Of a stretch of 64,000 nt of DNA, positions 5,862 through 58,520 are shown in pieces (the first letter of the stretch is position 1; the number at the start of each line of letters is the position of its first letter). Location: positions 150,975 through 214,974 of the forward strand of contig CAYLYK010000004.1 of NCBI GenBank assembly GCA_964388115.1. The letters run 5' to 3'. The notes beneath the pieces were generated by a model. The model worked only from the letters and a program-made list of their open reading frames with translations, ran no database searches and was not told the origin of the DNA. Source of the DNA: an uncultured Hyphomicrobiales bacterium (lineage in GTDB: Bacteria; Pseudomonadota; Alphaproteobacteria; Reyranellales; JAQSWP01). Both the position numbers and the translations under genes were made by a program.

Positions 5862-7361
<1,500 letters not shown>

Positions 7362-7385: not shown

Positions 7386-7416
7386 GGGCGCAGCGAGAGC
7401 TGCGCCCTTTTCGTTT
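7386..7416 (+). terminator. Rho-independent terminator candidate
   Basis: GGGCGCAGC-GAGA-GCTGCGCCC followed by TTTTCGTTT. Confidence 0.65.
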
Positions 7417-7613: not shown

Positions 7614-9098
7614 ATGATGGGTACGAAAGAGGCCCCGGTACGATCTGCGAAGTTGGCCGCCCCGCATAAGCGCGCGAGCCCGTCGGGCGCCGATTCCCGT
7701 AAGCGTTCCCTCAAACCCACGGGACCGGTGCTGCCGCCATCCATCGGCGAACGCGCGATCGCCCTGACCATGGCGACGCGCCCGCGCGATGCGCTGATTC
7801 GCAACTGGGAACTGGCGCTGGCGCTTGAGATCAAGCCGGCGCTGGACACGAAAAAACTGTCTTCCGCATTTCGCAGCGTCTTGAATCTGCACAAGCGGCT
7901 GCGCAGCGTCTATTTCGTGCGCGACGACGACGTGACGGTCCGCACATTGCCGGTGGAAGCGTTCGATCTGGAAGTGGTCGATGCCACCAGCCTGTCCGCC
8001 GCCGCCCTCACGGAAGAGCTGCACACGCGGGTGGACAAGCCGTGGAACATGTCCGTCGGCCCGCAAATCACGTTGACCGCCTTCCAACGGCCGAAAGACC
8101 GCATGGTCCTGCTGCTGCGCATCAACCATCTGCTGGTGGATGGCTGGTCGATCGAACTGCTGTTGCGCGATTTGCTGATGTTCTATGTCGGCCTGCCGGT
8201 GGAAACCGGCGCGGTCGCCAGCTACGAGCAATACATCGCCTGGGAAACCGCTTTCGTGCAGTCCCCTGCCGGCCGCGCGCAACGCGAATTCTGGCGGCGC
8301 AAGCTGGCGCGGCTCGGACCGCGCCTGAAGCTGCCCTACGACCGGCCGCCGACCTCGCCCTTCGTGCAGAATTCGGCCAATGCGCCTTTCGCCTTCGACC
8401 GCGCCGAGACCACGACCATTCGCGAGTTCTCCGGCAAGAGCGGCGTCAGCGTCTATGCCTTCATGCTGGCGACCTACCAGATCCTGCTGACGCATCTGTC
8501 CGGCGAAACCGACCTGACCGCGCTTGTCACCACCGCCCACCGCACGCATGCCGACTTCGCCGGCACGGTCGGCCTTGTCTCCAACCTAATCGCGTTCAGG
8601 AACCCGGTGGTCGGCTCGGGCACGTTCCGCCAGCAGCTCGCGCGCGCCGGCCGCACCATCGTCGAGGCGCTGTCGAACCAGGATTGCCCGATCCGCATCG
8701 TCGCCGAAGACCTGGCGGCGAACCAGCTCGCCCTTGCCACCACCTTCGGCACGCCCGACTCCGCCTTCGACCAGATCGGCCTCTACATGCTGACGCCGAA
8801 CCAGTCCGGCCTGCCCGACGCCGGCTTGCGCTCGCTGTTCGAGCCCGACCGCAAATTCAAGATGGGCCCGTTCGAACTGCGGACCCTTGAGCTGCCGCGC
8901 AACGACGCAACGCGCGAGTTGACGTTGTTCTTCAACGAGGTCGGCGACCGGCTTCTGGCCTTCTTCGCCTACAACGCCGATATTTTCAACGAGTCGACGG
9001 TCATTGGCTTCATCGACAAGTTCCGCGCCATCGCCCGGCTCGGGCTGGAACGGCCCGATCGCTCGGTCGACGACATAATGGCGGCGTTGAAGGTCTAG
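7614..9098 (+). CDS. Stand-alone NRPS-type condensation (C) domain protein, paralogue 1
   Basis: 'INHLLVDGWS' is a variant of the C3 core motif HHxxxDGWS. About 440 aa collinear with the downstream paralogue. Lys/Arg-rich N-terminal ~45 aa, so the exact start is uncertain. Confidence 0.78.
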   Translation: MMGTKEAPVRSAKLAAPHKRASPSGADSRKRSLKPTGPVLPPSIGERAIALTMATRPRDALIRNWELALALEIKPALDTKKLSSAFRSVLNLHKRLRSVYFVRDDDVTVRTLPVEAFDLEVVDATSLSAAALTEELHTRVDKPWNMSVGPQITLTAFQRPKDRMVLLLRINHLLVDGWSIELLLRDLLMFYVGLPVETGAVASYEQYIAWETAFVQSPAGRAQREFWRRKLARLGPRLKLPYDRPPTSPFVQNSANAPFAFDRAETTTIREFSGKSGVSVYAFMLATYQILLTHLSGETDLTALVTTAHRTHADFAGTVGLVSNLIAFRNPVVGSGTFRQQLARAGRTIVEALSNQDCPIRIVAEDLAANQLALATTFGTPDSAFDQIGLYMLTPNQSGLPDAGLRSLFEPDRKFKMGPFELRTLELPRNDATRELTLFFNEVGDRLLAFFAYNADIFNESTVIGFIDKFRAIARLGLERPDRSVDDIMAALKV

Positions 9099-9342
9099 GC
9101 TCAAGCCGACCGACGCCGCCCCGCGATCTGGCATCGACCCCGACAGGTCGCTGAACCTGAGCAGTCACGGTTTGACGGGACCGCTGGCGTTTTCGTCAAA
9201 CACCGCGCTGCTTCTCCAGGCATCCATAGGCAGAGCGAATTGACAAGACCGGGGCGGAAGCATGCACGCTTCCACCTGATCGTGATCCGCTCTAAGCTGC
9301 GAAAACTTCCATTCAGAGAAGCGCGAGTGACTGTGGTGGTCG

Positions 9343-10764
9343 ATGGCGGCGGGGCGTAGCGGCAAAGCAAAATCGGTCACGTCGGCGAAAGTTGGCCCAA
9401 AGCTGAAGGTTGCGCACAGCGAACGGGGCATGGCCTTGACCATGGCTGCCCGCCCGCGCGACGAATTGATCCGAAGCTGGGACATCGCCCATGCTCTGGA
9501 AATCAAGCCGGCGCTCGATAACGAACGCCTGGCCCGCGCCTTCCAGCACATCATCCATCTCCATCCGCGCCTGCGCGCCGTCTATCGGGTCGCGAACGAC
9601 GACGTAAGCGTCCGGCTCCTGCCGCCGCAGAAATTCACTCTGGGGACGGTGGATGCCTCGGCGCTGCCGGAGCCCGACTTCCTGGTCATGCTCCGAGAAC
9701 TCGCCGCAAAATCCTGGGATATCGAACGCGGCCCCTTGATTGACGTCACCGCCATCGCGCGACCCCGCAATCGCATGGTGCTGTTGCTGCGCGTGCATCA
9801 TCTGGTGGTCGATGGCTGGTCGATCGAGGTCTTGCTGCGCGACATGATGATGTACTACGTGGGCTTCGTGAGCGCAGCGCAGAAGCCGCCGGGATTCGAC
9901 GCCTTCATCGAATGGGAAGAGAAATTCATCGCCTCTCCCGCCGGGCGCGATCAACGCGCCTTCTGGCGCAAGCGCCTGGCAGGACTCGGGCCACGGCTGA
10001 AATTGCCTTATGACCGCCAGCCCTCGTCGGCGACGATCTCCAGTTCGGCCGTGCATAATTTCCTGATCGACAGGACGTTGACGGGCAAGGTCCAAGCCTT
10101 GGCGAAGCGCGGCGGCGTATCGGTTTTTGCCGTGCTCCTCGCCGCCTTTCAGACGCTCCTGTCGGGACTGAGCGGCCGCAACGACATTCCCATCACCACC
10201 ACGATGGCGCGCCGCACGAAGGGCGAATTCACCAACACGGTCGGCCTTATCGCCAATCTCGTCGCCTTGCGCGGCACGGTGGCGGACGACGTGGCGTTTG
10301 GCCGGCAGGTAGCGTTGGCGGGCCGGGTCATCGTCGAAGCGCTGGCCAATCAGGAGCTGCACGTCAAGATAGTCGCCGACGATCTGGCGGCCGGTAGCCT
10401 CGACCAGGCCGGCAACATAGGCGTCGGCGATACCGCCTTCGATCAGGTGGGGCTCTGCATGTTGACGCCCAACGTCAGCGACCTGCCCGATGCCGGCCTG
10501 CGGCTCAAATTCAATCTTGAATCGACCACCAAGGTCGGGCCCTATGAGTTGCGCATGCTGCCCCTGGACCGAAGCGAGTGCACCCGCGACCTTACGCTCT
10601 ATTTCAACGAGCTGGACGGCCAGATTGCCTGCTTTTTCGCCTACTCTGCCGATGTTTTCGACAGAGGCACGATTCAAGGTTTCGCCGACCGATTGCTCGC
10701 CATCTTGCAGCGCGGTTGCGACAAACCTGACCTTGCTTTGCGGGACCTCAAACTTGCTCAATAG
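9343..10764 (+). CDS. Stand-alone NRPS-type condensation (C) domain protein, paralogue 2
   Basis: 'VHHLVVDGWS' core motif. Collinear with paralogue 1. An alternative start at ATG 9430 is possible. Confidence 0.78.
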   Translation: MAAGRSGKAKSVTSAKVGPKLKVAHSERGMALTMAARPRDELIRSWDIAHALEIKPALDNERLARAFQHIIHLHPRLRAVYRVANDDVSVRLLPPQKFTLGTVDASALPEPDFLVMLRELAAKSWDIERGPLIDVTAIARPRNRMVLLLRVHHLVVDGWSIEVLLRDMMMYYVGFVSAAQKPPGFDAFIEWEEKFIASPAGRDQRAFWRKRLAGLGPRLKLPYDRQPSSATISSSAVHNFLIDRTLTGKVQALAKRGGVSVFAVLLAAFQTLLSGLSGRNDIPITTTMARRTKGEFTNTVGLIANLVALRGTVADDVAFGRQVALAGRVIVEALANQELHVKIVADDLAAGSLDQAGNIGVGDTAFDQVGLCMLTPNVSDLPDAGLRLKFNLESTTKVGPYELRMLPLDRSECTRDLTLYFNELDGQIACFFAYSADVFDRGTIQGFADRLLAILQRGCDKPDLALRDLKLAQ

Positions 10765-10791
10765 GCCCGGCCATAGTCTTCAGGAGCAGCC

Positions 10792-11625
10792 ATGCGCGTA
10801 GCGGTCATTACGCCCTATTGCACAGAGTCGAATGACGTTCTTGCGAAATGCCATGACAGTGTGATGTCCCAGAGCCATGCAGTGCGCCATGTCATGGTCG
10901 CCGACGGGCCGCCTAACCCGCGGGTGCAATCCTGGGATGTCGATCATATTTCCCTGCCCCGACTGCATCACGACAACGGCAATCTCGCACGCTGCGTCGG
11001 CGCCTTGCACGCCAAGGCCGAGGGCTATGAAGCGGTTGCCTTCCTCGATGCCGACAACTGGTACCGACCGGAACATATTGCCCTGATGGTCGGGTTGCAG
11101 CGCTCGACCGGAGCGCAGGTCTGCACCGCGGCGCGCTCGCTTTACCGGCTCGATGGCTCGCTGATGCGCGAAGTGGATGCCGAGTCCGATGGTTCGGGTT
11201 TTGCAGATACAAGCTGCATGTTCATCCATGCCTCGGCTTTTGAAACCCTGCCCCTGTGGGCGCAGATGCCGGTCGAGATGTCGCCGGTCTGTGATCGCGT
11301 CGTATGGATGGCGATATTGCTGCGCGGCCTGCGCCGCGCCCATTCGCCCCTGCAAACCGTCGCCTTCCGCACCCGCTATGCCCACGCCTACCGTTCCATG
11401 GGCGAAACGCCGCCCGTGGAGGCCAAGGAAGACAGCACCTTCCTTCCCGCTTTCGGTTACTGGGCGCGCATGACGCCCCGCGCACGGGTGCAATTGATCT
11501 TTGGCGCCGCCCCCGCACAGGAATCGGCTTTGGCGGAATTGGACCGGACGATCCTTAATTCGGGTATCATCGATCGCCCCTCCGAAGGAATCCCCGTGGA
11601 AGCTGCGCTCGCCGTCCATCAATGA
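10792..11625 (+). CDS. GT-A fold / family 2-like glycosyltransferase
   Basis: 'MRVAVITPYC' N-terminus and 'FLDADNWY' DxD motif. AGGAG RBS. Confidence 0.65.
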   Translation: MRVAVITPYCTESNDVLAKCHDSVMSQSHAVRHVMVADGPPNPRVQSWDVDHISLPRLHHDNGNLARCVGALHAKAEGYEAVAFLDADNWYRPEHIALMVGLQRSTGAQVCTAARSLYRLDGSLMREVDAESDGSGFADTSCMFIHASAFETLPLWAQMPVEMSPVCDRVVWMAILLRGLRRAHSPLQTVAFRTRYAHAYRSMGETPPVEAKEDSTFLPAFGYWARMTPRARVQLIFGAAPAQESALAELDRTILNSGIIDRPSEGIPVEAALAVHQ

Positions 11626-12644
11626 CCGTCCGGACCATCAACGTGGCCCTGCAAGGCGGCGGCGCCCATGGCGCCTTCACCTGGGGCGTGCTGGACCGGC
11701 TGCTGGAAGACGAACGCATCGCCATCGAAGGCATCTCCGGCACTTCCGCCGGCGCGGTCAATGCCGTGGTGTTGGCGCAAGGCTTCGCCGATGGCGGCAA
11801 GGACGGCGCGCGCGCAGCACTCGACGATTTCTGGAGCGACCTGGCGAATTTCGCGCCCTTCTCGCCGGCGCAACGCACCTTCTACGATTGGCTGACGGGC
11901 AACTGGAATCTGGACCGCTCGCCCGCCGCGCTGATCTTCGACATGTTCACCCGGCTGGTCTCGCCCTACGAGGGCAATCCCGCCAACCTCAATGGCTTGC
12001 GTACGCTGCTGGCCGACCGGGTCGATCTGGCGAAAGTGCGCGCCTGTCATCCGTTGAAGCTGTTCATTTCCGCCACATCGGTGCGGACCGGCAAGGGCCG
12101 CGTCTTCCAGGGAAAGGACATCACGCTCGACGCCATTCTCGCTTCCGCCTGCCTGCCGACGGTGTTCCAGGCGGTGATGATCGATGGCGAGCCCTATTGG
12201 GATGGCGGCTATATGGGTAATCCGGCCATCTGGCCGTTGATCTACGGCTGCGACAGCCGCGATGTCGCCATCGTGCAGATCAATCCGCTGACGCGCGACA
12301 AGGTCCCGCACAGTTCCGCCGAGATCATGAACCGGCTGAACGAGATCACCTTCAACTCCGCCCTGATCGGCGAAATGCGCGCCATCGCCACCGTGCAACG
12401 GCTGATCGAAAACGGTGAGTTGACCGAGACCGCCACCGGCAGGCTGAAGAAGATGCTGATCCATCTCATCAGCGATCCGGTCGAAATGCAGGAACTGGGC
12501 GTGGCCAGCAAGTTCAACCTCAACCGCGATTTCCTGCAGCATCTGAAATCGGTCGGCCGCAACGCGACGGAGCGCTGGCTCGAGACCAACTATGCCAAGC
12601 TCGGCATGGAATCCAGCATCGACATACGCGCCACTTTCCTGTGA
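11622..12644 (+). CDS. Patatin-like phospholipase family protein
   Basis: 'LQGGGAHGAF' (GGGxxG oxyanion hole), 'GTSAG' (GxSxG), 'WDGGY' (catalytic Asp). The ATGA overlaps the preceding stop codon. Confidence 0.85.
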   Translation: MTVRTINVALQGGGAHGAFTWGVLDRLLEDERIAIEGISGTSAGAVNAVVLAQGFADGGKDGARAALDDFWSDLANFAPFSPAQRTFYDWLTGNWNLDRSPAALIFDMFTRLVSPYEGNPANLNGLRTLLADRVDLAKVRACHPLKLFISATSVRTGKGRVFQGKDITLDAILASACLPTVFQAVMIDGEPYWDGGYMGNPAIWPLIYGCDSRDVAIVQINPLTRDKVPHSSAEIMNRLNEITFNSALIGEMRAIATVQRLIENGELTETATGRLKKMLIHLISDPVEMQELGVASKFNLNRDFLQHLKSVGRNATERWLETNYAKLGMESSIDIRATFL

Positions 12645-12648
12645 CTGC

Positions 12649-13545
12649 ATGCGCATCGGCATCGACCTCGGCGGCACCAAGATCGAAGGCATCGCTCTCG
12701 ACCGCGATGGACGCGAACTCGCGCGCCGTCGCATCGCCACGCCGCAGGGCCCCTATGAAGAAACCATTGCGGCCATCGCCGATATCGTCGCCTGGCTGGA
12801 GCGCAAGACGGGACAGCGCGGCAGCGTCGGCGTCGGCACGCCGGGCGCCATATCGCCGGCAACGGGCCTCATCAAGAACGCCAACTCGACGCGGCTGATC
12901 GGCCACCCTCTGGATCGCGATCTGGAAGCGGCGCTGGGCCGCAAAGTGCGCATCGCCAACGACGCCAATTGTTTTGCCGTATCGGAAGCGGTCGATGGCG
13001 CTGCAGCGGGCGCTGCGGTCGTGTTCGGCGTCATCCTGGGCACCGGCTGCGGCGGCGGTATCGCGATCGAGGGGCGCGTCGTCACCGGCGCCAATGCCAT
13101 CGCCGGCGAGTGGGGACACAATCCCCTGCCGCAGCCGAGGCCGGATGAACAACCCGGACCCGCCTGCTATTGCGGCCGCTCCGGCTGCATCGAAACATTT
13201 CTTTCAGGGCCGGGGCTGGCGCAGGATCACGTTCGCCACGGCGGATCGGCCCTGAGCGCGACGGAAATAGTCGCCCGCGCCGATGCCGGCGATGGCGCCT
13301 GCCAGGCAACGCTTGATCGCTACATCGACCGCCTGGCGCGCGGCCTGGGGTCGGTCATCAACATTATCGATCCCGATTGCATCGTGCTGGGCGGCGGCAT
13401 GTCGAACTGCAAGCAGCTTTACGACAAAGTGCCGGCTCGCTGGGGTCGTTACATTTTCTCCGACGCGGTCAGCACCAGATTGTTGCCGCCCAGACACGGC
13501 GATTCCAGCGGCGTTCGCGGCGCAGCCTGGCTGTGGAACGACTAG
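12649..13545 (+). CDS. ROK family sugar kinase (N-acetylglucosamine kinase/fructokinase-like)
   Basis: 'MRIGIDLGGTK' ATP-binding motif. 'CYCGRSGCIE' ROK zinc motif. Trimmed from 12592 to ATG 12649. Confidence 0.85.
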   Translation: MRIGIDLGGTKIEGIALDRDGRELARRRIATPQGPYEETIAAIADIVAWLERKTGQRGSVGVGTPGAISPATGLIKNANSTRLIGHPLDRDLEAALGRKVRIANDANCFAVSEAVDGAAAGAAVVFGVILGTGCGGGIAIEGRVVTGANAIAGEWGHNPLPQPRPDEQPGPACYCGRSGCIETFLSGPGLAQDHVRHGGSALSATEIVARADAGDGACQATLDRYIDRLARGLGSVINIIDPDCIVLGGGMSNCKQLYDKVPARWGRYIFSDAVSTRLLPPRHGDSSGVRGAAWLWND

Positions 13546-13555
13546 AAGATCGGCG

Positions 13556-14365
13556 CTATTTGCACTTGGGCTTGGGCAGATCCTCGATCGTTGCCAGCTT
13601 GCCGTGCACGGTGAAGTCGCCGTAGTCGAGCGTGATGGCCCGCGCCACGCCATTGGCGAGAAGCTCGACCGTCATTTCGTACTCGGGCTGATCTTCACGC
13701 TTGCTCGCGGGGAAGAAGGCCAGGTGCACCATCCACAATTGCTGGTTCTGCAACAACGCGTGTTTCACATCGGTATCGGTCTTCGGCTGCGTGCCGGTGA
13801 TGACCGCATTGACGTCGAAGGCGCCTTCCAGCCGGCCGCCGTCGAACACCGGGCGCAGCAAGCCGAAATCGCCCGCCTTGGCCCGATCGATCAGCGCGGC
13901 GGTGTGCGCGGTCGGAAACAGCGTGCCCTTGGGCAGGGCGAATTCCTTTTTCTCGGGCTCGTTGAACACCGCGCGTCCGTCGCCGCGGCTGTTCTCGAAT
14001 GTCGCCGTGCCGCGCAGCTGCTCGTCGGGACTGCCGTCCTCGATGTTGCGCACCGTGAAGCGATAGTTCAGCCCGTCCTTGGATTCGAAACTGGCGTAGC
14101 TGGTGTCGGCCTCGACCTGTTCGGCGTCGGAGCGGGAATAGGTCAGCCGCATGCGCTGGTTGACCTCCCAGCCGTCGCAGGATTCGCCGGTCTCGATCAC
14201 CATGGCGCCGCGCACGTCGAGGATCGTGCTGCCGCGCTTGGCGACCCCCAAGCGCATGTCGTAGATGGCGCGGTGCGGCGCCAGATCGGCAGCCAGCGCG
14301 GAAGAGGTAACGAACGCAAAAGCGGCCAAAGCCGCAAAACCGGTGGAAACGCTGCGCAAAACCAT
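13556..14365 (-). CDS. Periplasmic DUF1849 / EipB-like cell-envelope integrity protein
   Basis: Signal peptide ending 'SSALAA'. Overall resemblance to DUF1849 proteins, recalled from memory and not searched. Confidence 0.6.
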   Translation of the reverse strand: MVLRSVSTGFAALAAFAFVTSSALAADLAPHRAIYDMRLGVAKRGSTILDVRGAMVIETGESCDGWEVNQRMRLTYSRSDAEQVEADTSYASFESKDGLNYRFTVRNIEDGSPDEQLRGTATFENSRGDGRAVFNEPEKKEFALPKGTLFPTAHTAALIDRAKAGDFGLLRPVFDGGRLEGAFDVNAVITGTQPKTDTDVKHALLQNQQLWMVHLAFFPASKREDQPEYEMTVELLANGVARAITLDYGDFTVHGKLATIEDLPKPKCK

Positions 14366-49604: not shown

Positions 49605-49844
49605 CTAATTCGCCGACAGCCTCGCGCTGCCTGCGCAGTAGTTCGCCGCACGAGCAATTGAAGTTTGAATCCACAAACCGGCGCCCAACATGTTGTCGCC
49701 CAAAACATACAGCTCTGCATATTCCTGCACGCAGGCCCGGTATGCGGGAGTGCCGGGTTTCAGCTGCGCGTGGGCCGTGCCGGCCGTTACGGCCATCGCC
49801 ACCACCGGCGCGAAAACGATCGTCAAAAAGCTGCGGATCATCAT
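49605..49844 (-). CDS. Small Sec-secreted two-cysteine protein, paralogue A
   Basis: AGGAGG RBS. Signal peptide ending 'AHA'. Mature part shares 'PAYRAC..EYAE.Y' and 'A.YC.G' with paralogues B and C. Confidence 0.6.
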   Translation of the reverse strand: MMIRSFLTIVFAPVVAMAVTAGTAHAQLKPGTPAYRACVQEYAELYVLGDNMLGAGLWIQTSIARAANYCAGSARLSAN

Positions 49845-50150
49845 TTCCTCCTAATACCGAGAAGTATTACGCCAAAGTATTAGACGGAGTGCGGACTCAG
49901 AACACAACATGGACCGCGGCGACAACGGTGCTATTCCAGCGCCAGTTGCTATCTCGCAACGTCATGAATTCAGAAAGATGTTGGATAAGTCGTCCGCTAT
50001 TCAAATGCCAGATAGCGGTATCGGCGGTACTTGGGATTGGACATCGATCGAACACGGCGGAAGCGGGGCAAAGCATAGCGCCATGGCGATTTCAGATGAC
50101 TGCCTGCCTGTCCATTCACTTTCGACAGAAACGACTATCGCCGCTGCTCG

Positions 50151-50188
50151 CGCTGAATCCGCCGCCAGTTGGCGACGTTGCGGTTGTG
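50151..50188. repeat. 38-bp direct-repeat copy of the mltG 3-prime end (gene-end remnant)
   Basis: CGCTGAATCCGCCGCCAGTTGGCGACGTTGCGGTTGTG matches 51010-51047 at 37 of 38 positions. The minus strand reads '..HNRNVANWRRIQREQRR*' versus the mltG C-terminus 'HNRNVANWRRIQREQKK*'. Confidence 0.75.
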
Positions 50189-50240
50189 CTGCTGATGGCG
50201 TGGTTCGCGTTCGAGCGACGGTAAAGACACGCCTGTCCGC

Positions 50241-50279
50241 AAACGAAATCGGCGCAGACTTGGCGAAGTCTGCGCCGAT
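50241..50279 (-). terminator. Rho-independent terminator after small-protein gene B
   Basis: 14-bp perfect stem ATCGGCGCAGACTT / AAGTCTGCGCCGAT with a 4-nt loop, followed on the minus strand by TTCGTTT. Confidence 0.6.
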
Positions 50280-50304
50280 GATGGAATCGATCGTCAAGCT
50301 CCTT

Positions 50305-50523
50305 CTAATAAGGCGAGAGCCGCATGGTGCCGGAGCAGTAGCTTGCCGCTTGAAGAATTGCGTAACCCAGCGATCCTCCGCCTCCCGGCAAATCCTCGCC
50401 CATCATGTAACGCTCAGCGCTCGCGTGCAGACAAGCGCGATACGCGGGGCCGGCATTCGCGGGCCCGATTGCGGCCAGCGTCGCGACCGCAGCGAAAGAC
50501 AGCAACAAGAGCCTGGATTTCAT
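50305..50523 (-). CDS. Small Sec-secreted two-cysteine protein, paralogue B
   Basis: GGAGAG RBS. Signal peptide ending 'ANA'. 'GPAYRACLH...AASYCSGTMRLSPY'. Confidence 0.6.
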   Translation of the reverse strand: MKSRLLLLSFAAVATLAAIGPANAGPAYRACLHASAERYMMGEDLPGGGGSLGYAILQAASYCSGTMRLSPY

Positions 50524-50626
50524 TCGTCTCTCCGAAAATTCAAATCAACGATGAACCACTGACCGTGAATCGCAGAGCGGCAATCACGTCGGCGGATCGC
50601 AACGTCCGATGCCGACGTCCTGCTGG

Positions 50627-50842
50627 CTATACCGGGGAAAGCCGCATGGTGCCGGAGCAATAGCTGGCCGCCTTCAGAATGGCGACGCCGAGCGATCCGC
50701 CGGCAAACATATTGCCGCCCACCGCATAAATCTCGGCGTATTCGTGCAAACAGGCCCGATAGGCCGGCGTGGCATGCGCTGACGTGTTGAGCGCGATAAA
50801 GGCGGGAAATGCGAGCAGAATGGAGAATAGTCTGACTTTCAT
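50627..50842 (-). CDS. Small Sec-secreted two-cysteine protein, paralogue C
   Basis: 'MKVRLFSILLAFPAFIALNTSAHA' signal peptide. 'TPAYRACLHEYAEIY...AASYCSGTMRLSPV'. Start 50842 preferred over 50854. Confidence 0.6.
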   Translation of the reverse strand: MKVRLFSILLAFPAFIALNTSAHATPAYRACLHEYAEIYAVGGNMFAGGSLGVAILKAASYCSGTMRLSPV

Positions 50843-50993
50843 GAACACCCCCATCTAGAGCTAAAGAATATGAGACGAAGGTAGCAGAACACCTGTCCAG
50901 CGCTGGCAACAAGCTCTAGCTGCTAATGAACCTATTATCCCCATTTATATTCGGATCAACTTCGAGGAGGGAGTATGAGGACGGAGGAATGAA

Positions 50994-51980
50994 TTACTTC
51001 TTTTGCTCCCGCTGAATCCGTCGCCAGTTGGCGACGTTGCGGTTGTGTTGTTCCAGCGTCTCGGCGAAGGCGTGGCCGCCGGTGCCGTCGGCGACGAAGA
51101 AGATTTCCTTGCTCTGGATCGGATTGAGCGTGGCTTCGATGGCGGCGCGGCCGGGGTTGGCGATCGGTCCCGGCGGCAGGCCGGCGATCGAATAGGTGTT
51201 GTAGGCCGAGGGCGACTGCACGTCGTTGCGCGTGAGCGTGCGGTCGAGCGGGCCGCTGCCTTTGGTGATGCCGTAGATGGTAGTGGGATCGGATTCCAGC
51301 CGCATCCCCAGGCGCAGGCGATTGATGAACACCGCCGCCACGCGCGGCCGCTCCGACGCCACGCCGGTTTCCTTCTCGACGATGGAGGCGAGCGTCAGCG
51401 CCTCCTCCTTGCTGACCAGCGGCAGGTCCTGCTGCCGCTTGGCCCAGGCGGCGTCGAGCGCCTCGGTCATCGCCTGGCGCATGCGCTGCACCACCGCATC
51501 GCGGCTGTCGCCCAGGCTGTAGTGATAGGTCTCGGGCAGCAGAGTGCCTTCGGCCGGCCGCAGCGAGATGTTGCCTTCCAGCCCCTCGACCTCGCGCACG
51601 ATCTTCAGTACTTCGGCCACGGTCAGGCCTTCAGGGACGGTGAAGCGGCGGATGACGGTGCGGCCCGAGCGCATCTGCTCGATGGCCGACATCACCGTGG
51701 TGCCGGCCTGGAACTCGTATTCGCCGGCGCGCAGCGGACGACGATCCTTCTCCAGACGCAACGCCACGCGGAACAGCAGGTCATCGGCAATCACGCCCTG
51801 CTTTTCCAGCAGCGCGCCGATCTCGCCGCTGCCGGTGCCCTTGGGGACCACGACGACCTTGGGCGCGGTCAGCGGGCCGGGCGCTTCGAGCTGGTGCTGC
51901 AGATAGAAATAGCCGCCGGCCGCCGCGACGGCGGCGCCGACGATCAATGTCAGGAAAAGGCGGAGGACGAAGCGGCCCAA
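50994..51980 (-). CDS. mltG: Endolytic murein transglycosylase MltG (YceG-like)
   Basis: N-terminal TM segment. 'LASIVEKE' catalytic-Glu motif. 'PGPIANPG'. Confidence 0.9.
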   Translation of the reverse strand: MGRFVLRLFLTLIVGAAVAAAGGYFYLQHQLEAPGPLTAPKVVVVPKGTGSGEIGALLEKQGVIADDLLFRVALRLEKDRRPLRAGEYEFQAGTTVMSAIEQMRSGRTVIRRFTVPEGLTVAEVLKIVREVEGLEGNISLRPAEGTLLPETYHYSLGDSRDAVVQRMRQAMTEALDAAWAKRQQDLPLVSKEEALTLASIVEKETGVASERPRVAAVFINRLRLGMRLESDPTTIYGITKGSGPLDRTLTRNDVQSPSAYNTYSIAGLPPGPIANPGRAAIEATLNPIQSKEIFFVADGTGGHAFAETLEQHNRNVANWRRIQREQKK

Positions 51981-51990
51981 CGGCAGCCGC

Positions 51991-53253
51991 TTACGACACG
52001 GCGCCGAAGATCACCGAGGCGTTGGTGCCGCCGAAGCCAAAGGAATTGGACAGCGCGTAACGCACCTTGCGCTCCTTGGCCTTGAGCGGCACCAGATCGA
52101 TGTCGCAGCCTTCCGACGGATCCTCGAGGTTCAAGGTCGGCGGCACGATCTGCTCCTGGATCGACTTGATGGCGAAGATCGCCTCCACCGCGCCCGCCGC
52201 GCCCAGCAGATGGCCGATCGACGACTTGGTCGAGGACATCGACAGCTTGTAGGCGGCATCGGCGAACAGCCGCTTCACCGCGCCCAGCTCGATCTCGTCG
52301 CCCAGAGGCGTCGAGGTGCCGTGCGCGTTGATGTAGTCGATATTGTCGGTGTTGAGCCTGGCGCGCTTGAGCGCCGCCTGCATGGCGCGATAGCCGCCAT
52401 TGCCGTCGCTCGGCGGCGCGGTGATGTGGTAGGCGTCGCCCGACAGGCCGTAGCCGATCACTTCGGCGTAAATCTTGGCGCCACGCTTCTTGGCGTGCTC
52501 GTATTCTTCCAGCACCAGGCAGCCGGCGCCCTCGCCCATCACGAAACCGTCGCGGCCCTTGTCCCAGGGGCGCGAGGCCTTTTCCGGCGTTTCGTTGTAG
52601 CCGGTTGACAGCGCGCGCGCGGCGGCGAAGCCGGCAAGGCCCAAACGGCAGACCGCCGCTTCGGCGCCGCCGCAGACCATGACGTCGGCGTCGTCGAGCT
52701 GGATCAGGCGCATGGCATCGCCCACGGCGTGCGCGCCGGTCGAGCAGGCGGTGACGACGGAATGGTTGGGGCCCTTGAAACCGTATTTGATCGAGACCTG
52801 GCCGGAGCCGAGATTGATCAGGGCGGCCGGGATGAAGAACGGGCTCATGCGACGGGGCCCCTTCTCCTTCAAGGTGATGGAGCCTTCGTAGATCGTCTCA
52901 AGCCCGCCTATCCCCGAGCCGATCAGCACGCCGGTGCGATGGGCCTTCTCGTCGGTGTCGGCCGTCCAGCCCGAATCCTCGACCGCCTGGCTGGCCGCGC
53001 CCATCGCGTAGACGATGAAGCGGTCGACCTTGCGCTGGTCCTTGGGCGGCATGTAGTCGTCGGCGTTGAAACGGCCGGAGGCGGTGTCGCCCAGCGGCAC
53101 CTGGCCCGCGATCTTGGCCGGCAGATCCGACACGTCGAAGGACTGGATGCCGCTGATGCCGGATTCGCCCGCGATCAGGCGCTTCCACGTCGGCTCGACG
53201 CCCGAACCGAGCGGCGTCACCATGCCCATGCCCGTAACGACCACTCGTCTCAT
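51991..53253 (-). CDS. fabF: Beta-ketoacyl-ACP synthase II
   Basis: 'ACSTGAHA' (active Cys), 'NAHGTSTP', 'NSFGFGGTNASV'. Confidence 0.95.
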   Translation of the reverse strand: MRRVVVTGMGMVTPLGSGVEPTWKRLIAGESGISGIQSFDVSDLPAKIAGQVPLGDTASGRFNADDYMPPKDQRKVDRFIVYAMGAASQAVEDSGWTADTDEKAHRTGVLIGSGIGGLETIYEGSITLKEKGPRRMSPFFIPAALINLGSGQVSIKYGFKGPNHSVVTACSTGAHAVGDAMRLIQLDDADVMVCGGAEAAVCRLGLAGFAAARALSTGYNETPEKASRPWDKGRDGFVMGEGAGCLVLEEYEHAKKRGAKIYAEVIGYGLSGDAYHITAPPSDGNGGYRAMQAALKRARLNTDNIDYINAHGTSTPLGDEIELGAVKRLFADAAYKLSMSSTKSSIGHLLGAAGAVEAIFAIKSIQEQIVPPTLNLEDPSEGCDIDLVPLKAKERKVRYALSNSFGFGGTNASVIFGAVS

Positions 53254-53310
53254 GCCGAAAATCCCATCCAGTTTAAGGAGCGAATGCCCGCTTGAGCGGG
53301 CATCCGGAGC

Positions 53311-53547
53311 TTATTTCTGGTGTTCTTCGATGAACTTGATGGCGTCGCCGACGGTGCCGATCTTCTCGGCTGCGTCGTCGGGGATTTCGATGCCGAATTC
53401 CTCTTCGAACGCCATCACGAGTTCGACCGTGTCGAGCGAGTCGGCGCCCAAATCGTCGATAAAGCTGGAGGTCGGGGAGACCGTATCGGCCTCGACGCCG
53501 AGGTGCTCGACGACGATCTTCTTAACGCGGTCGGCAATGTCGCTCAT
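53311..53547 (-). CDS. acpP: Acyl carrier protein
   Basis: '[21 protein letters not shown]' phosphopantetheine-attachment motif. 78 aa. Confidence 0.96.
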
Positions 53548-53723
53548 CTTCGCTGATCCTTCGCTTGCAGGATGTTTTTGTCATGGCTGCGGCAGCAGCC
53601 CGTTTTGCTTGTGCACGCCGGCAAAAAAGCGGCGTTTCGTAACACGTTTCCCCAACCTTGACCAGCCAAAGAAACGCCGTAATTCCAACCGGTTGCGGGC
53701 AAGACGTTGCCGCGCACCGGCCT

Positions 53724-54461
53724 TCATATCATGGCCATGCCGCCATTGATGTGCAAGGTCTGCCCGGTCACATAAGCCGCTTCCGCACTTGCGAGATAGA
53801 CCACGCCGGCGGCGATGTCGTCGGGCGTGCCCAGCCGCGCGGTGGGAATGGCGCCCAGCAATTTGCTCTTCTGCTCCTCGGTGAGCGCATCGGTCATCGG
53901 CGTGGCGATGAAGCCCGGCGCCACGCAATTGACGGTAATGCCGCGCGAGGCGACTTCGGCCGCCAGCGACTTGGACATGCCGATCATGCCGGCCTTGGAA
54001 GCGGCGTAGTTGGCCTGGCCGGGATTGCCGGTGACGCCCACGATCGAGGTGATGTTGATCATCCGCCCGAAGCGGCGCTTCATCATCCCGCGCATGGCGG
54101 CGCGACAGAGGCGGAACGTGGCGGTCAGGTTGACGTCGATCACCGCCTGCCAGTCCTCGTCTTTCAAGCGCAGCGCCAGCATGTCGCGCGTCAGCCCTGC
54201 GTTGTTGACGAGAATATCCAGCGATCCCATGCGCGCCTCGGCATCCTTGATCAGCGCATCGGCAGCCCCCGCATCGGAAAGATTGGCGGTGGCGACATGC
54301 ACGCGATCCTTCAATTCGCCGGCCAGCGCTTCCAGCGCCGCAGCGCGCGTGCCGCTCAAGGTCACCTGCGCGCCTTGCGCATGCAGCGCGCGGGCAATGG
54401 CGCCGCCGATGCCGCCCGACGCGCCGGTGACCAGCGCGGACTTGCCTGAAAGATCGAACAT
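53724..54461 (-). CDS. fabG: 3-oxoacyl-ACP reductase
   Basis: 'VTGASGGIGGAIA' and 'YAASKAG'. fab cluster context. Confidence 0.93.
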   Translation of the reverse strand: MFDLSGKSALVTGASGGIGGAIARALHAQGAQVTLSGTRAAALEALAGELKDRVHVATANLSDAGAADALIKDAEARMGSLDILVNNAGLTRDMLALRLKDEDWQAVIDVNLTATFRLCRAAMRGMMKRRFGRMINITSIVGVTGNPGQANYAASKAGMIGMSKSLAAEVASRGITVNCVAPGFIATPMTDALTEEQKSKLLGAIPTARLGTPDDIAAGVVYLASAEAAYVTGQTLHINGGMAMI

Positions 54462-54477
54462 CGCTTCCTCCTGCCCT

Positions 54478-55422
54478 TCAGGCCACGGTCTTCAGAAAAT
54501 TCTCGATATCGGCCGGGCCGTTGATGGCGATGCCCTGCATTTCCTTGTCGATGCGCTTGACCAGCCCGCTCAGCACCTTGCCGGAGCCGACCTCGACCAG
54601 CGTGCCGACATCCTTGCTCTTCATGAAGAGTACCGATTCGCGCCAGCGCACCAGGCCGGTGACCTGCTGCACCAGCAGCTTGCGGATCGTGTCGGGATCG
54701 GAGGTGTCCGACGCCTTGACGTTGGCGATCAGCGGCACGCCGGGCGGCACGAGGGTGACGCTCTGCAGCGCCTGCGCCATCTCGTCGGCGGCCGGCTGCA
54801 TCAGCGGGCAATGGAAGGGCGCGCTGACGGGCAGCAGCATGCCGCGCTTGCAGCCTTTGGCCTTGGCCGCCTCGATGGCGCGATCGACCGCTTCCTTGTG
54901 GCCCGAGATCACCACCTGCCCGCCGCCATTGTCGTTGGCCACCGCGACGATCTGGTTCTGGGCCGCTTCCTTGCAGGCTTCCTGCGCCGGCTCCAGCTCG
55001 ATGCCCAGCAGCGCCGCCATGGCGCCGACGCCCACCGGCACCGCCCGCTGCATCGCCTGGCCGCGCCGCTTCAAAAGCCGCGCCGCATCGGCGATGGTGA
55101 AGGCGCCCGCCGCGCACAGCGCCGAATACTCGCCCAGCGAATGGCCCGCGACATAGGAGGCCATGGCGGAAAGCTTCTTGCCGCTCTCGCTCTCCAGCAC
55201 CCGCACCACGGCGAGACTGACCGCCATCAGGGCGGGCTGCGCGTTCTCGGTCAGCGTCAGGTCCGATTCCGGCCCCTCCTTCATCAGGTGCGAGAGCTTC
55301 TGTTTCAGGGCCTCGTCCACTTCCTCGAAAACCTGGCGGGCGACGGGGAAAGCGGCGGCCAGATCCTGCCCCATACCGACGGCCTGCGAGCCCTGGCCCG
55401 GAAAGACGAATGCGCGTGTCAT
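54478..55422 (-). CDS. fabD: Malonyl CoA-ACP transacylase
   Basis: 'FVFPGQGSQ' and 'GHSLGEYSAL'. Confidence 0.93.
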   Translation of the reverse strand: MTRAFVFPGQGSQAVGMGQDLAAAFPVARQVFEEVDEALKQKLSHLMKEGPESDLTLTENAQPALMAVSLAVVRVLESESGKKLSAMASYVAGHSLGEYSALCAAGAFTIADAARLLKRRGQAMQRAVPVGVGAMAALLGIELEPAQEACKEAAQNQIVAVANDNGGGQVVISGHKEAVDRAIEAAKAKGCKRGMLLPVSAPFHCPLMQPAADEMAQALQSVTLVPPGVPLIANVKASDTSDPDTIRKLLVQQVTGLVRWRESVLFMKSKDVGTLVEVGSGKVLSGLVKRIDKEMQGIAINGPADIENFLKTVA

Positions 55423-55724: not shown

Positions 55725-56207
55725 ATGCCGTTCTACGAGAACGTGTTTATCGCACGTCAAGACATTGCCGGCCCCCAAGCGGATGCGCTGGCAGACACTT
55801 TCGCAGCCATCATTGAGCAAGGTGGCGGCAAGGTGACCAAGAAGGAAAACTGGGGCCTGCGGTCCCTGGCGTTCCGGATGAAGAAGAACCGGAAGGGCCA
55901 CTACCTTCTCCTCAACATCGACGCCCCGTCGGCGGCCGTGATCGAGATGGAACGCAACATGCGCCTCAACGAGGACGTGCTGCGCTACCTGACCGTGCGG
56001 GTCGACGCCCTCGAAGAGGGCCAGTCGGTCATGCTGCAGAAGCGCGACCGCGACGACCGTGGCGATCGCGGCGACCGCGGCGACCGTGGCGATCGCGGCG
56101 ACCGGCCGCGTCGTGATCGTGGCGACCGTGGCGATCGCGGCGACCGTGGCGGCGAGCGTCCGCGCTTTGCCGATCGCGCCGAAGGCGACAGCGAAGGAGC
56201 CGTCTGA
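55725..56207 (+). CDS. rpsF: 30S ribosomal protein S6 with Arg-Gly-Asp repeat C-terminal tail
   Basis: '[13 protein letters not shown]...[18 protein letters not shown]'. AAGGAG RBS. The tail is '(DRG)n'. Confidence 0.93.
56044..56152 (+). repeat. In-frame 9-bp-period tandem repeat (GGCGAYCGN)n inside rpsF
   Basis: Encodes '[36 protein letters not shown]'. A larger unit GACCGTGGCGATCGCGGCGACCG recurs three times. Confidence 0.8.
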
Positions 56208-56455
56208 TGAGCATGAGCACTGGCGGGGGCCAGCGTCGCCCCTTCATCCGTCGGCGCAAGACCTGTCCGTTCACCGGCGCCAACGCGCCGAAGATCGACT
56301 ACAAGGACGTGCGCCTGCTGGGCCGCTTCATTTCCGAGCGCGGCAAGATCGTGCCCAGCCGCATCACCGCAGTATCGACCAAGAAGCAGCGCGAGCTGGC
56401 CCAGGCCATCAAGCGCGCCCGCTTCCTGGGCCTGCTGCCCTACCTCATCAAGTAA
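56207..56455 (+). CDS. rpsR: 30S ribosomal protein S18
   Basis: '[35 protein letters not shown]'. The ATG shares one nt with the rpsF TGA. Confidence 0.93.
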
Positions 56456-56470
56456 GGCGGGAGAACAGCC

Positions 56471-57151
56471 ATGCATATGGAAGTAGTCCTGCTCGAGCGC
56501 GTGCCGAAACTCGGCCAGATGGGCGACGTGGTCCGCGTCAAGCCCGGCTTCGCGCGCAACTACCTGCTGCCGCGCAAGAAGGCCTTGCGCGCCACCAAGG
56601 AAAACATGGCGTATTTCGAGACGCAGCGTAAGCGTCTGGAGACGACCAATCTGGAGCGCAAGGCCGAAGCGGAGAAGGTTGCCGAGAAGATGAAAGACTT
56701 CTCCGTCACCCTGCTGCGCCAGGCTTCCGAAGCGCTGCAGCTTTACGGCTCGGTCGGCGCCCGCGACATCGCCCAGGCGGCGAGCGAAGCCGGCGTGCAG
56801 ATCAGCCGGCCGCAGGTCAACCTCGACAAGGCCCTCAAGACTCTGGGCCTGCACGAGGTCGAGATCATGCTGCACCCGGAAGTGTCGGTGATGATCAAGG
56901 TCAACGTCGCCCGCTCGGCGGCGGAAGCCGAGTTCCAGGCCCAGGGCGGCGTGCTGGTGGCCGATGCCGTCCGCGCCCAGCAGGAAGCCGAAGAACAGCA
57001 GCGCCTGGCCGAACAGCAGGCCGCCGCTCTGCTCGTCGAGAAGCCCAAGGCCGAGGCGAGCGAGGAAGCAGCCGCTGAGGAGGCTCCGGCCGCCGAGGCT
57101 GCGGCTGAAGAGAAGCCGGCCAAGAAGGCCAAGAAGAAGAAAGAAGCCTGA
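56471..57151 (+). CDS. rplI: 50S ribosomal protein L9 with Ala/Glu/Lys-rich C-terminal extension
   Basis: 'MEVVLLERVPKLGQMGDVVRVKPGFARNYLLPRKKALRAT'. The start could be 56471 or 56477. Confidence 0.9.
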   Translation: MHMEVVLLERVPKLGQMGDVVRVKPGFARNYLLPRKKALRATKENMAYFETQRKRLETTNLERKAEAEKVAEKMKDFSVTLLRQASEALQLYGSVGARDIAQAASEAGVQISRPQVNLDKALKTLGLHEVEIMLHPEVSVMIKVNVARSAAEAEFQAQGGVLVADAVRAQQEAEEQQRLAEQQAAALLVEKPKAEASEEAAAEEAPAAEAAAEEKPAKKAKKKKEA

Positions 57152-57175
57152 TCGGTTTCTTCCGGCAATGATCTG

Positions 57176-57207
57176 CAAAAAGCCCGGCCTCGCGCCGGGC
57201 TTTTTCG
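57176..57207 (+). terminator. Rho-independent terminator of the rpsF operon
   Basis: GCCCGGC-CTCGC-GCCGGGC followed by TTTTT, preceded by an A-run. Confidence 0.7.
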
Positions 57208-57293
57208 TTGGGCCTTTGCGAACCCGCCATCCCGCGCTAGATTCCTGAAAAGCAACGACAAGAGGCGTTTGCCGCGCCCCGGAGTCACGAGCA

Positions 57294-58520
57294 ATGCTGC
57301 TGGCGAAAGTGCTGGGCAAGATACTGCAGGTGGGGACGATCGACATGATCGACCCGCACGGCGTCGCCCATCGCATCGAGGGCCGCAAGCCCGGCCCGCA
57401 TGTCGTGGTCCGCATCCACGACCAGCGCACCGCCCGCCGCCTGCTGACCAACGCCAAGCTGGCTTTGGGCGAAAGCTACATGGATGGCACGCTGACGGTC
57501 GAAAAGGGCGACATCTACGATTTCCTCGACCTGATGGGCCATTCCATCGAGGCTTTCGAGCGCCACCCGGTCAATACGGTGTTCTCGCGCCTGGGCTATT
57601 TGCTGCGCGGCTTGCGCCAGTACAACCCGGTCGGCAAGGCGCAACAGAACGTCGCCCACCACTACGACCTCTCGGGTGCGCTGTACGATCTGTTCCTCGA
57701 CCAGGACCGGCAATATTCCTGCGCCTATTTCCGCAGCCCCGAGGACACGCTCGAGCAGGCGCAGGACCAGAAGAAGAAACACATCGCCGCCAAGCTGATG
57801 ATCAAGCCCGGCCACAAGGTGCTGGATATCGGCTGCGGCTGGGGCGGCATGGGCCTGTACCTCGCCCGCGCTACCGGCGCCGACGTCACCGGCGTCACGC
57901 TTTCGGTCGAGCAGCAGAAAGTGGCGCAGCAACGCGCCGAGCAGGAAGGCTTGGCGGGCCGCGTGCGCTTTGCGCTGCGCGACTATCGCGAGGAGCCGGG
58001 CAAGTACGACCGCATCGTATCGGTCGGCATGTTCGAGCATGTCGGCGCGGGCCATTACGGCGAGTTCTTCAACAAGGTGCGCGATCTTCTGACCGACGAC
58101 GGGGTGATGCTGCTGCATGCCATCGGCCGCATGGAGCCGCCGGGCGGCACCAATCCGTGGCTGCGCAAGTACATCTTCCCCGGCGGCTACACGCCGGCCC
58201 TGTCCGAAGTGCTGACCGCCATCGAGCGCAGCGGGCTGTGGGTGACCGATTGCGAGATATTGCGCCTGCACTACGCCTTCACCTTGCGCGAATGGCGCAA
58301 GCGTTTCCTGGCCAATCGCGACCGCATCAAGGCGCTCTACGACGAGCGCTTCTGCCGCATGTGGGAGTTCTACCTCGCCGCCTGCGAGATGAGCTTCCGC
58401 CACATGCGCCAGATGGTGTTCCAGCTGCAGATCACCCGGCACGAGCAGGCGGTGCCGCTGACCCGCGACTACATGTACGAGGCGGAGCGGGAATATCTTG
58501 CCGTGCGCGCGGCGGAATGA
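57294..58520 (+). CDS. cfa: Cyclopropane-fatty-acyl-phospholipid synthase family methyltransferase
   Basis: 'ESYMDG', 'HYDLSGALYDLFLD', 'VLDIGCGWGG' SAM motif, 'WEFYLAACE'. Confidence 0.88.
   Translation: MLLAKVLGKILQVGTIDMIDPHGVAHRIEGRKPGPHVVVRIHDQRTARRLLTNAKLALGESYMDGTLTVEKGDIYDFLDLMGHSIEAFERHPVNTVFSRLGYLLRGLRQYNPVGKAQQNVAHHYDLSGALYDLFLDQDRQYSCAYFRSPEDTLEQAQDQKKKHIAAKLMIKPGHKVLDIGCGWGGMGLYLARATGADVTGVTLSVEQQKVAQQRAEQEGLAGRVRFALRDYREEPGKYDRIVSVGMFEHVGAGHYGEFFNKVRDLLTDDGVMLLHAIGRMEPPGGTNPWLRKYIFPGGYTPALSEVLTAIERSGLWVTDCEILRLHYAFTLREWRKRFLANRDRIKALYDERFCRMWEFYLAACEMSFRHMRQMVFQLQITRHEQAVPLTRDYMYEAEREYLAVRAAE

Follow-up and report, generated by a model that had tools for sequence, protein, structure and literature searches.

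We analyzed a block of five genes in a 64-kb stretch of DNA from an uncultured Hyphomicrobiales bacterium (contig CAYLYK010000004.1); the whole stretch is called the window here, and all positions are window positions unless another locus is named. On the plus strand the block encodes two stand-alone nonribosomal peptide synthetase (NRPS)-type condensation (C) domain proteins, C1 (7614-9098, 494 aa) and C2 (9343-10764, 473 aa), a family-2 glycosyltransferase of the GT-A fold, GT2 (10792-11625, 277 aa), a patatin-like phospholipase (11622-12644, 340 aa), and a ROK-family sugar kinase of the fructokinase/Mak-like type (12649-13545, 298 aa). The original prediction for this DNA had joined the five genes into one possible pathway for an acylated sugar, glycolipid, or lipo-amine. 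Our data point instead to a composite block, a reading to which we assign a probability of roughly 0.7: a patatin-ROK backbone carries a variable islet of C and GT2 genes, and C1 and C2 would be independent accessory transferases that act in trans.

A variable slot on a conserved backbone

We compared the block with orthologous loci in other genomes. These loci share an extended synteny, in which citrate synthase genes, a luciferase-like gene, L33, and an aldehyde dehydrogenase gene (Aldedh) lie on one side of a slot, and the genes for patatin, ROK, EipB (minus strand), a 2-hydroxyacid dehydrogenase, a SPOR protein, AspRS, RNase D, and Ppx lie on the other. Aldedh is syntenic and 90-98% identical in loci L001, L004, L095, L097, and L098. 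The content of the slot varied. In the window, L004/5, L006-8, and L101 (GCA_054405655.1, JGI, and other sources), it consists of C1, C2, and GT2. In L001/L014, from a Reyranellaceae metagenome-assembled genome (MAG; GCA_050181585.1), a C2-like gene (73% identity), the sole C gene present, is followed by GT2 (83%); L097 (GCA_040255215.1) has only a C1-like gene (81%), located 65 nt before patatin; and L094 (Logan SRR30854912) has a C2-like gene (66%), a C1-like gene (65%), and then the last 32 GT2 codons fused before patatin. L095/L096 (GCA_037189325.1) have nothing in the slot, and Aldedh and patatin are 89 nt apart. The presence of five slot contents on the same backbone indicates that the five genes do not form a single conserved pathway.

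In a more distant relative, L098 (GCA_964458605.1), the slot holds AraC, tRNA_SAD, and MscS genes. Genomes with differing cassettes were about equally related to the window, with identities of 84-89% for patatin and 94-96% for Aldedh. The original prediction had named beforehand what would tell against a single pathway, namely C homologues without the other genes as neighbors and patatin-ROK conserved by itself, and this is what was found. Patatin-ROK stands alone at the site in L095/L096, and C genes occur without GT2 in L097 and, apart from the remnant, in L094. Outside the syntenic loci, the deepest member of the C1 clade, P0016 (L103), is a solitary C gene beside GNAT and epoxide hydrolase genes. 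A sister clade, 30-33% identical to C1 and C2, occurs in a conserved trio comprising an ATP-grasp ligase, a C protein, and a 380-402-aa protein without a Pfam match. This trio was found at positions 1682-5397 of L009 and 1-3339 of L012, it is 48-60% identical between these two unrelated contigs, and it may be an NRPS-independent amide-forming module.

GT2 likewise occurs elsewhere without the neighbors that it has in the window. Its match to PF00535 was weak but above the cutoff (30.1 bits versus 23.3; E = 5e-7); it carries an LDADNW motif, and D86-A-D88 (DxD) was invariant in 18 GT2 homologues. The top Foldseek matches of the GT2 model (predicted local distance difference test [pLDDT] score, 91.9) were TarP, TarS, RmlT, WrtF, and SpsA, which are polymer-decorating GT-A enzymes. 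GT2 is a polysaccharide-type GT-A enzyme. A motif scan for the GT2 family across 185,579 species-representative genomes returned 318 loci, and we examined the neighborhoods of the best 80. Among these, none of the 79 loci outside the clade (41-54% identity, with Reyranella sp. CPCC 100927 included) had C, patatin, or ROK genes within 10 kb. The recurrent neighbors were polysaccharide genes: WecG/TagA, Bac_transf, DegT, GFO/IDH/MocA, a hexapeptide acetyltransferase, other GT2s, and GT41-TPR.

Patatin and ROK behaved as backbone genes. Patatin (PF01734, 78.3 bits, E = 1e-21) has in its translation the GGGAHG oxyanion loop (GGGxxG), the GTSAG serine motif (GxSxG), and the DGG aspartate motif; its family has more than 8000 homologues, and it is kept at the site with or without C and GT2. 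A Stellaceae patatin of 61% identity (L099) has neither ROK nor a C gene nearby. The ROK protein belongs to its family by profile (PF00480, 265 bits, E = 1e-78) and falls below the equivalog cutoff of the NCBIfam fructokinase model PRK09557 (Mak), with 421.2 versus 443 bits. Its mechanically called open reading frame (ORF) begins at 12592, and orthologues are called at 298-299 aa. Every clade member has ROK after patatin; in L098 the two are separated by a nucleoside phosphorylase gene of the PNP_UDP_1 type (11048-11977 of L098), so the adjacency of patatin and ROK is not invariant.

C1 and C2 as rare condensation-domain proteins under purifying selection

An ungapped alignment of C1 and C2 over 456 aa shows 50% identity, as expected from the earlier estimate that about half of their aligned positions agree. 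Both are single-domain proteins, in which PF00668 was the only Pfam match at E ≤ 0.01 (7e-51 for C1 and 3.5e-59 for C2). The original prediction had named nonsignificant profile scores for the condensation fold as evidence against it; the scores obtained, 173.7 and 201.1 bits, exceed the cutoff of 30.6, and the matches span profile positions 25-447 of 456. The core motifs lie where they had been placed, INHLLVDGWS at 8121-8150 and VHHLVVDGWS at 9793-9822, with the refinement that the C1 motif, NHLLVDG, is of the form NHxxxDG and not HHxxxDG (C2 has HHLVVDG). The catalytic second His and the Asp of the motif were invariant in all 22 family sequences, drawn from both clades, and the first position varied among H, N, C, and S. 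A neighbor-joining tree set the C1 clade apart from the C2 clade, and since each clade holds several lineages, the duplication that separates them is old. The AlphaFold model of C2 (pLDDT, 85.1) shows a complete two-lobed, V-shaped C fold, that is, a CAT-like pseudodimer.

Close relatives of C1 and C2 are scarce. A protein-cluster search of 5.8 billion proteins yielded ∼19 clusters of them, which by identity to C2 fell into C2-like (66-100%), C1-like (48-53%), and two sequences at 31-34%; the next matches were generic NRPS C domains at ∼25% identity. When 241 million metagenome records were scanned for family-specific motifs, one extra family locus (L101) and an ordinary NRPS (L102) were obtained. 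Among the matches listed in a C2 search of 50%-identity representatives, where giant NRPSs with summed scores dominate, P0016 was the sole family member. Our search of the literature returned no paper linking Reyranella with condensation domains. As judged from these sequence comparisons, the C1/C2 clade consists of very rare, lineage-restricted, stand-alone condensation enzymes.

We also compared the five genes with those of three orthologous loci. The ratios of nonsynonymous to synonymous substitution rates (dN/dS) were 0.05-0.24 for all five (0.16-0.19 for C1 and 0.12-0.21 for C2), and the value for the C1-like gene of L097 was 0.16. Substitution patterns of this kind indicate purifying selection on all five genes, which argues that the C genes are functional and not relics. 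Full-length C ORFs occur in at least 8 independent loci. The GC content at third codon positions was 0.72 for GT2 and 0.79 for C2 versus 0.89 for Aldedh, a difference that is not decisive for horizontal transfer.

Search for partner genes and other elements

The claim that adenylation (A), peptidyl carrier protein (PCP), and thioesterase (TE) domains are missing from the rest of the 64 kb withstood a tblastn search with 34 multidomain NRPS and polyketide synthase (PKS) queries, which found no homologues. The window's only carrier protein is encoded by acpP (53317-53547, minus strand), 40 kb away, whose product is 63.6% identical to E. coli AcpP. The ORFs that flank acpP (51991-55422) look like a housekeeping fatty-acid synthesis cluster by their sizes (fabF-, fabG-, and fabD-sized), with acpP the only one identified. 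A dedicated carrier or activating gene was found neither in the window nor in the flanks of L001, L004, L006, L097, and L103, and no NRPS remnants flank the C genes. C1 and C2 also lack the A and PCP domains, in the same protein or cluster, that characterize a modular NRPS assembly line. The description of the C genes as stand-alone, orphan, and, in general terms, free-standing transferases is supported.

The spacers of ∼250 nt upstream of the C genes were searched for hidden elements. A carrier-protein gene could be dismissed, as no plausible ORF is present there, and the 74-aa ORF called ahead of C1 in L004 lacks a carrier motif. A regulatory RNA was rejected as well: the only candidate, BjrC68, was below threshold (18.9 bits versus a gathering score of 39) and lay over the Aldedh terminator, and Rfam gave no match at gathering score in the whole window. 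The two upstream spacers have no homology to each other of the kind that would mark a tandem duplication. We also considered an anti-phage defense islet; C1, C2, and GT2 matched no PADLOC model, and patatin gave only weak matches to generic phospholipase models.

Origin of the arrangement in the window

The spacer between C1 and C2 retains a footprint of Aldedh. In L101, this spacer (476-577 of L101) contains a copy of the Aldedh 3′ end (34 codons; 85 nt at 92% DNA identity) and, after it, a terminator-like hairpin. In the window, the spacer (9099-9342) holds a faint, decayed plus-strand trace (9127-9153) at the position corresponding to the clear L101 remnant, where 24 nt match Aldedh 7284-7307 with 87.5% identity (small database; E = 0.014). 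An Aldedh 3′ remnant at this place indicates that C2 once lay directly downstream of Aldedh, where C2-like genes still lie in L001 and L094. Insertion of C1 between Aldedh and a preexisting C2-GT2 pair then gave the order in the window and left a second copy of the Aldedh 3′ end; a plausible source of this insertion is recombination of an L097-type locus (Aldedh-C1-patatin) with an L001-type locus (Aldedh-C2-GT2-patatin).

L094 is a separate rearrangement in which most of GT2 was deleted. A 57-aa ORF in this locus (3207-3380 of L094) contains the surviving C-terminal 32 GT2 codons and still overlaps the patatin start. The sequence spared just upstream of patatin may carry translation or transcription signals for that gene. 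No trace of GT2 was found in L095 or L097, so that gain and clean loss are indistinguishable in these two loci.

Weighing of the explanations

We favor a composite origin of the block. Its backbone (Aldedh ... patatin-ROK-EipB-2-hydroxyacid dehydrogenase-SPOR-AspRS) belongs to a narrow Reyranellaceae-like lineage, and the Aldedh-patatin slot is a small, recombination-prone islet whose content ranges between genomes from none to two C genes and from none to one GT2 gene, such that C1 and C2 can each occur without the other and without GT2. Each C protein would work in trans as an independent transferase that passes an acyl, aminoacyl, or peptidyl group to an amine or hydroxyl; the donor would be a phosphopantetheine thioester whose carrier protein or CoA is provided from elsewhere in the genome. 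GT2 may share a substrate with the C enzymes where it is present, and they would not require it. Several observations weigh against this reading. Only ∼8 independent loci, the majority from MAGs or short contigs, make up the sample. The C genes of the clade all lie directly upstream of patatin, on the same strand and with short gaps, and co-transcription and some functional coupling of the C genes with patatin-ROK may exist. C and GT2 genes occur together in three of the five C-bearing lineages (the window type, L001, and, as a remnant, L094), a pattern that could reflect a shared function later lost piecemeal.

The same packing underlies the proposal of a five-gene operon pathway for an acylated sugar or glycolipid, with ROK as the kinase that phosphorylates the sugar, GT2 as its transferase, C1 and C2 as the acylating enzymes, and patatin as a deacylase or transacylase. 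The 27-nt gap, ATGA overlap, and 4-nt gap on one strand, the terminator and convergent gene that bound the block, the purifying selection on all five genes, and the persistence of the arrangement in L004, L006-8, and L101 all fit such a pathway. However, we regard it as very improbable given that patatin-ROK occupies the site alone in L095/L096, that L097 and L094 have C genes with no GT2 or only its remnant, that L098 has unrelated genes upstream and a gene splitting patatin from ROK, and that the deep C homologue, the sister clade, and the 79 GT2-family loci (from the best 80 of 318) have other contexts. Patatin, moreover, belongs to a huge, housekeeping-like family, and the kinase comes close to being an equivalog of ordinary fructokinase. 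The block shows how genes packed tightly on one strand can by themselves suggest a pathway where comparative genomics reveals a conserved backbone with an inserted variable cassette. A narrower proposal would limit the module to C1, C2, and GT2, which would make one lineage-specific product (e.g., an acylated or aminoacylated glycan or glycoconjugate), with patatin-ROK as unrelated neighbors and the partial cassettes as stages of decay. C and GT2 genes are adjacent with gaps of 21-27 nt in the window, L004, L101, and L001, L094 shows that GT2 formerly lay beside both C genes, GT2 was never seen without a C gene within the clade, and its family decorates polymers elsewhere. Nevertheless, the C genes of L094 and L097 are full length without a functional GT2, and the L097 gene is under selection (dN/dS of 0.16), which argues that C function is independent of GT2. 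Since C1 and C2 are also each found alone, no glycosyltransferase accompanies the C genes of L103 and the sister clade, and so small a sample allows no co-occurrence statistic, we consider this three-gene module unlikely.

We find it quite unlikely, and speculative, that C1 and C2 are elongation-type C domains wholly freed from NRPS machinery that directly use acyl-CoA, fatty acid synthase acyl-ACP (acyl carrier protein), or an aminoacyl thioester and, in genomes with GT2, build a lineage-specific acylated or aminoacylated envelope glycoconjugate, the product of which would vary as C1/C2 cassettes are shuffled at an Aldedh-patatin hot spot. Finally, the C genes could be noncatalytic or decaying leftovers from an NRPS cluster that has been lost, or scaffolds like the glycopeptide X-domain. 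The lack of nearby A, PCP, and TE domains, the replacement of the first motif His by N, C, or S in many members, and the match of the family profile to the teicoplanin X-domain would agree with this. It is nonetheless hardly credible, as the second His and the Asp are invariant, C-gene dN/dS values are 0.12-0.21, ORFs are intact across the independent loci, no NRPS remnants flank the genes, and the C2 model is a complete two-lobed fold.

Layout of the block and other features of the window

The ORF list confirmed the five plus-strand ORFs at the coordinates originally given for them, and Pfam agreed with all five domain assignments. The gaps of 27 nt between C2 and GT2 and 4 nt between patatin and ROK, and the ATGA overlap between GT2 and patatin, were also correct, and the packing is operon-like. 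On the left, the slot is bordered by Aldedh (5862-7361, plus strand; Pfam Aldedh, E = 1.9e-177), which is followed on the same strand by an intrinsic terminator at 7386-7416 consisting of an 11-12-bp GC-rich stem and then a T-run. The hairpin has a folding energy of -26.2 kcal/mol (z = -3.2) and is kept in the orthologous loci L004 and L097. On the right lies the convergent EipB-like gene (13556-14365, minus strand; PF08904, E = 1.2e-70), which is syntenic across all clade loci. The folding energy and this gene bear out the proposed limits of the block. The spacers upstream of the C genes are of lower GC content, as had been noted (0.567 and 0.607), and a scan for sigma-70 promoters gave no match.

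Two further features of the window were observed. Three tandem paralogous small ORFs on the minus strand (49605-49844, 79 aa; 50305-50523, 72 aa; 50627-50854, 75 aa) have a signal-peptide-like N terminus and a shared two-cysteine mature motif, 'PAYRAC...YAE.Y..G...A.(S/N)YC.G..RLS', and are predicted to form a family of small secreted proteins; they fall in the window's stretch of lowest GC content (50001-51000, 0.568). A tandem repeat with a 9-nt period (GCGACCGCG; ∼12 copies, 73% matches) occupies 56044-56151, inside an ORF on the minus strand (55985-57457), where it presumably encodes a short repetitive peptide tract.

Comparison with known condensation enzymes

If active, C1 and C2 would join the few condensation enzymes known to operate outside assembly lines, and they would be unusual in having no carrier or activating partner nearby. 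Their activity would bear on how C domains recognize donors, and on how genome mining treats orphan C genes, which in most cases are passed over or wrongly called NRPS fragments. With Foldseek, the C2 model aligned to the C domains of Txo2, TycC, DhbF, and LgrA with template modeling scores of 0.78-0.80 (E ∼1e-35 to 1e-30). When the family profile was compared with the sequences of the PDB, 63 matches were obtained at E ≤ 10, 60 of them listed. Elongation-type C domains came out on top (TycC6, 6e-45; Txo2, 5e-43; DhbF, 5.5e-39) and ranged overall from 1e-45 to 1e-30, and the teicoplanin X-domain followed at 2.7e-29. By profile and model, C1 and C2 thus appear closest to elongation-type NRPS C domains, and not to PapA, VibH, or starter C domains. 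This likeness favors, slightly and weakly, a carrier-bound aminoacyl or acyl donor over acyl-CoA. Although the elongation domains (LCL/DCL type, as in TycC6, Txo1/Txo2, DhbF, LgrA, and PvdL) are the nearest by both sequence and structure, they sit in multidomain megasynthetases with A and PCP domains, whereas C1 and C2 are without NRPS context and form their own clade at ∼25% identity.

Mycobacterial PapA proteins (PapA1/2/3/5) and WS/DGAT enzymes, to which the original prediction had compared the C genes, are stand-alone HHxxxDG-type transferases. PapA1 and PapA2 are two paralogues of one pathway, which the C1/C2 pair would resemble. PapA2 has been described as a user of palmitoyl-CoA and trehalose-2-sulfate (PMC6996325). 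A PapA identity of C1 and C2 was rejected, as neither PapA5 nor PapA2 figured in the 60 listed of 63 PDB profile matches or in the Foldseek top 50; a WS/DGAT identity was rejected because no WS/DGAT Pfam match appeared, PF00668 standing alone. As to the association with PKS, FadD, and MmpL genes that is typical of PapA, tblastn with PKS KR-ACP and A-domain queries found no homologue in the window, and the annotated flanks showed no such gene, with MmpL not queried directly. The likeness to PapA and WS/DGAT is therefore one of analogy only, which profile, Foldseek, and Pfam searches do not support. Starter (lipoinitiation) C domains take their acyl group from a thioester, a possible class of donor for C1 and C2 as well, but they are only weakly related to them (CDA-C1, 3e-6; RzmA, 6e-5 to 1e-4; versus 6e-45 for TycC6).

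The closest parallel in action is with the type II C enzymes SgcC5 (C-1027), VibH (vibriobactin), Bamb_5915 (enacyloxin), and OaaC, which like C1 and C2 are single-domain proteins of ∼450-490 aa with a full C fold and the catalytic His and Asp. SgcC5 (4znm) and Bamb_5915 (6cgo) matched the C1/C2 family profile at 5e-32 and 1e-18, respectively, VibH was not among the 60 listed of 63 PDB matches, and the identity of C1 and C2 to any known type II C enzyme is ∼20-24%. SgcC5, VibH, and Bamb_5915 are each encoded beside their own carrier protein and activating enzyme. OaaC, which makes gut fatty-acid amides by joining an ACP-tethered fatty acid to a small amine, works with OaaA and OaaACP (PMC13310621). 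Unlike these enzymes, C1 and C2 have none of the carrier and activating genes within 64 kb. By analogy, C1 and C2 may share the mechanism of type II C enzymes, in which a free small-molecule nucleophile receives the acyl or aminoacyl group from a carrier protein, and nothing points to a new one. C1 and C2 lie outside the PapA, WS/DGAT, and starter C groups, and in their predicted action they are most like the free-standing type II C enzymes.

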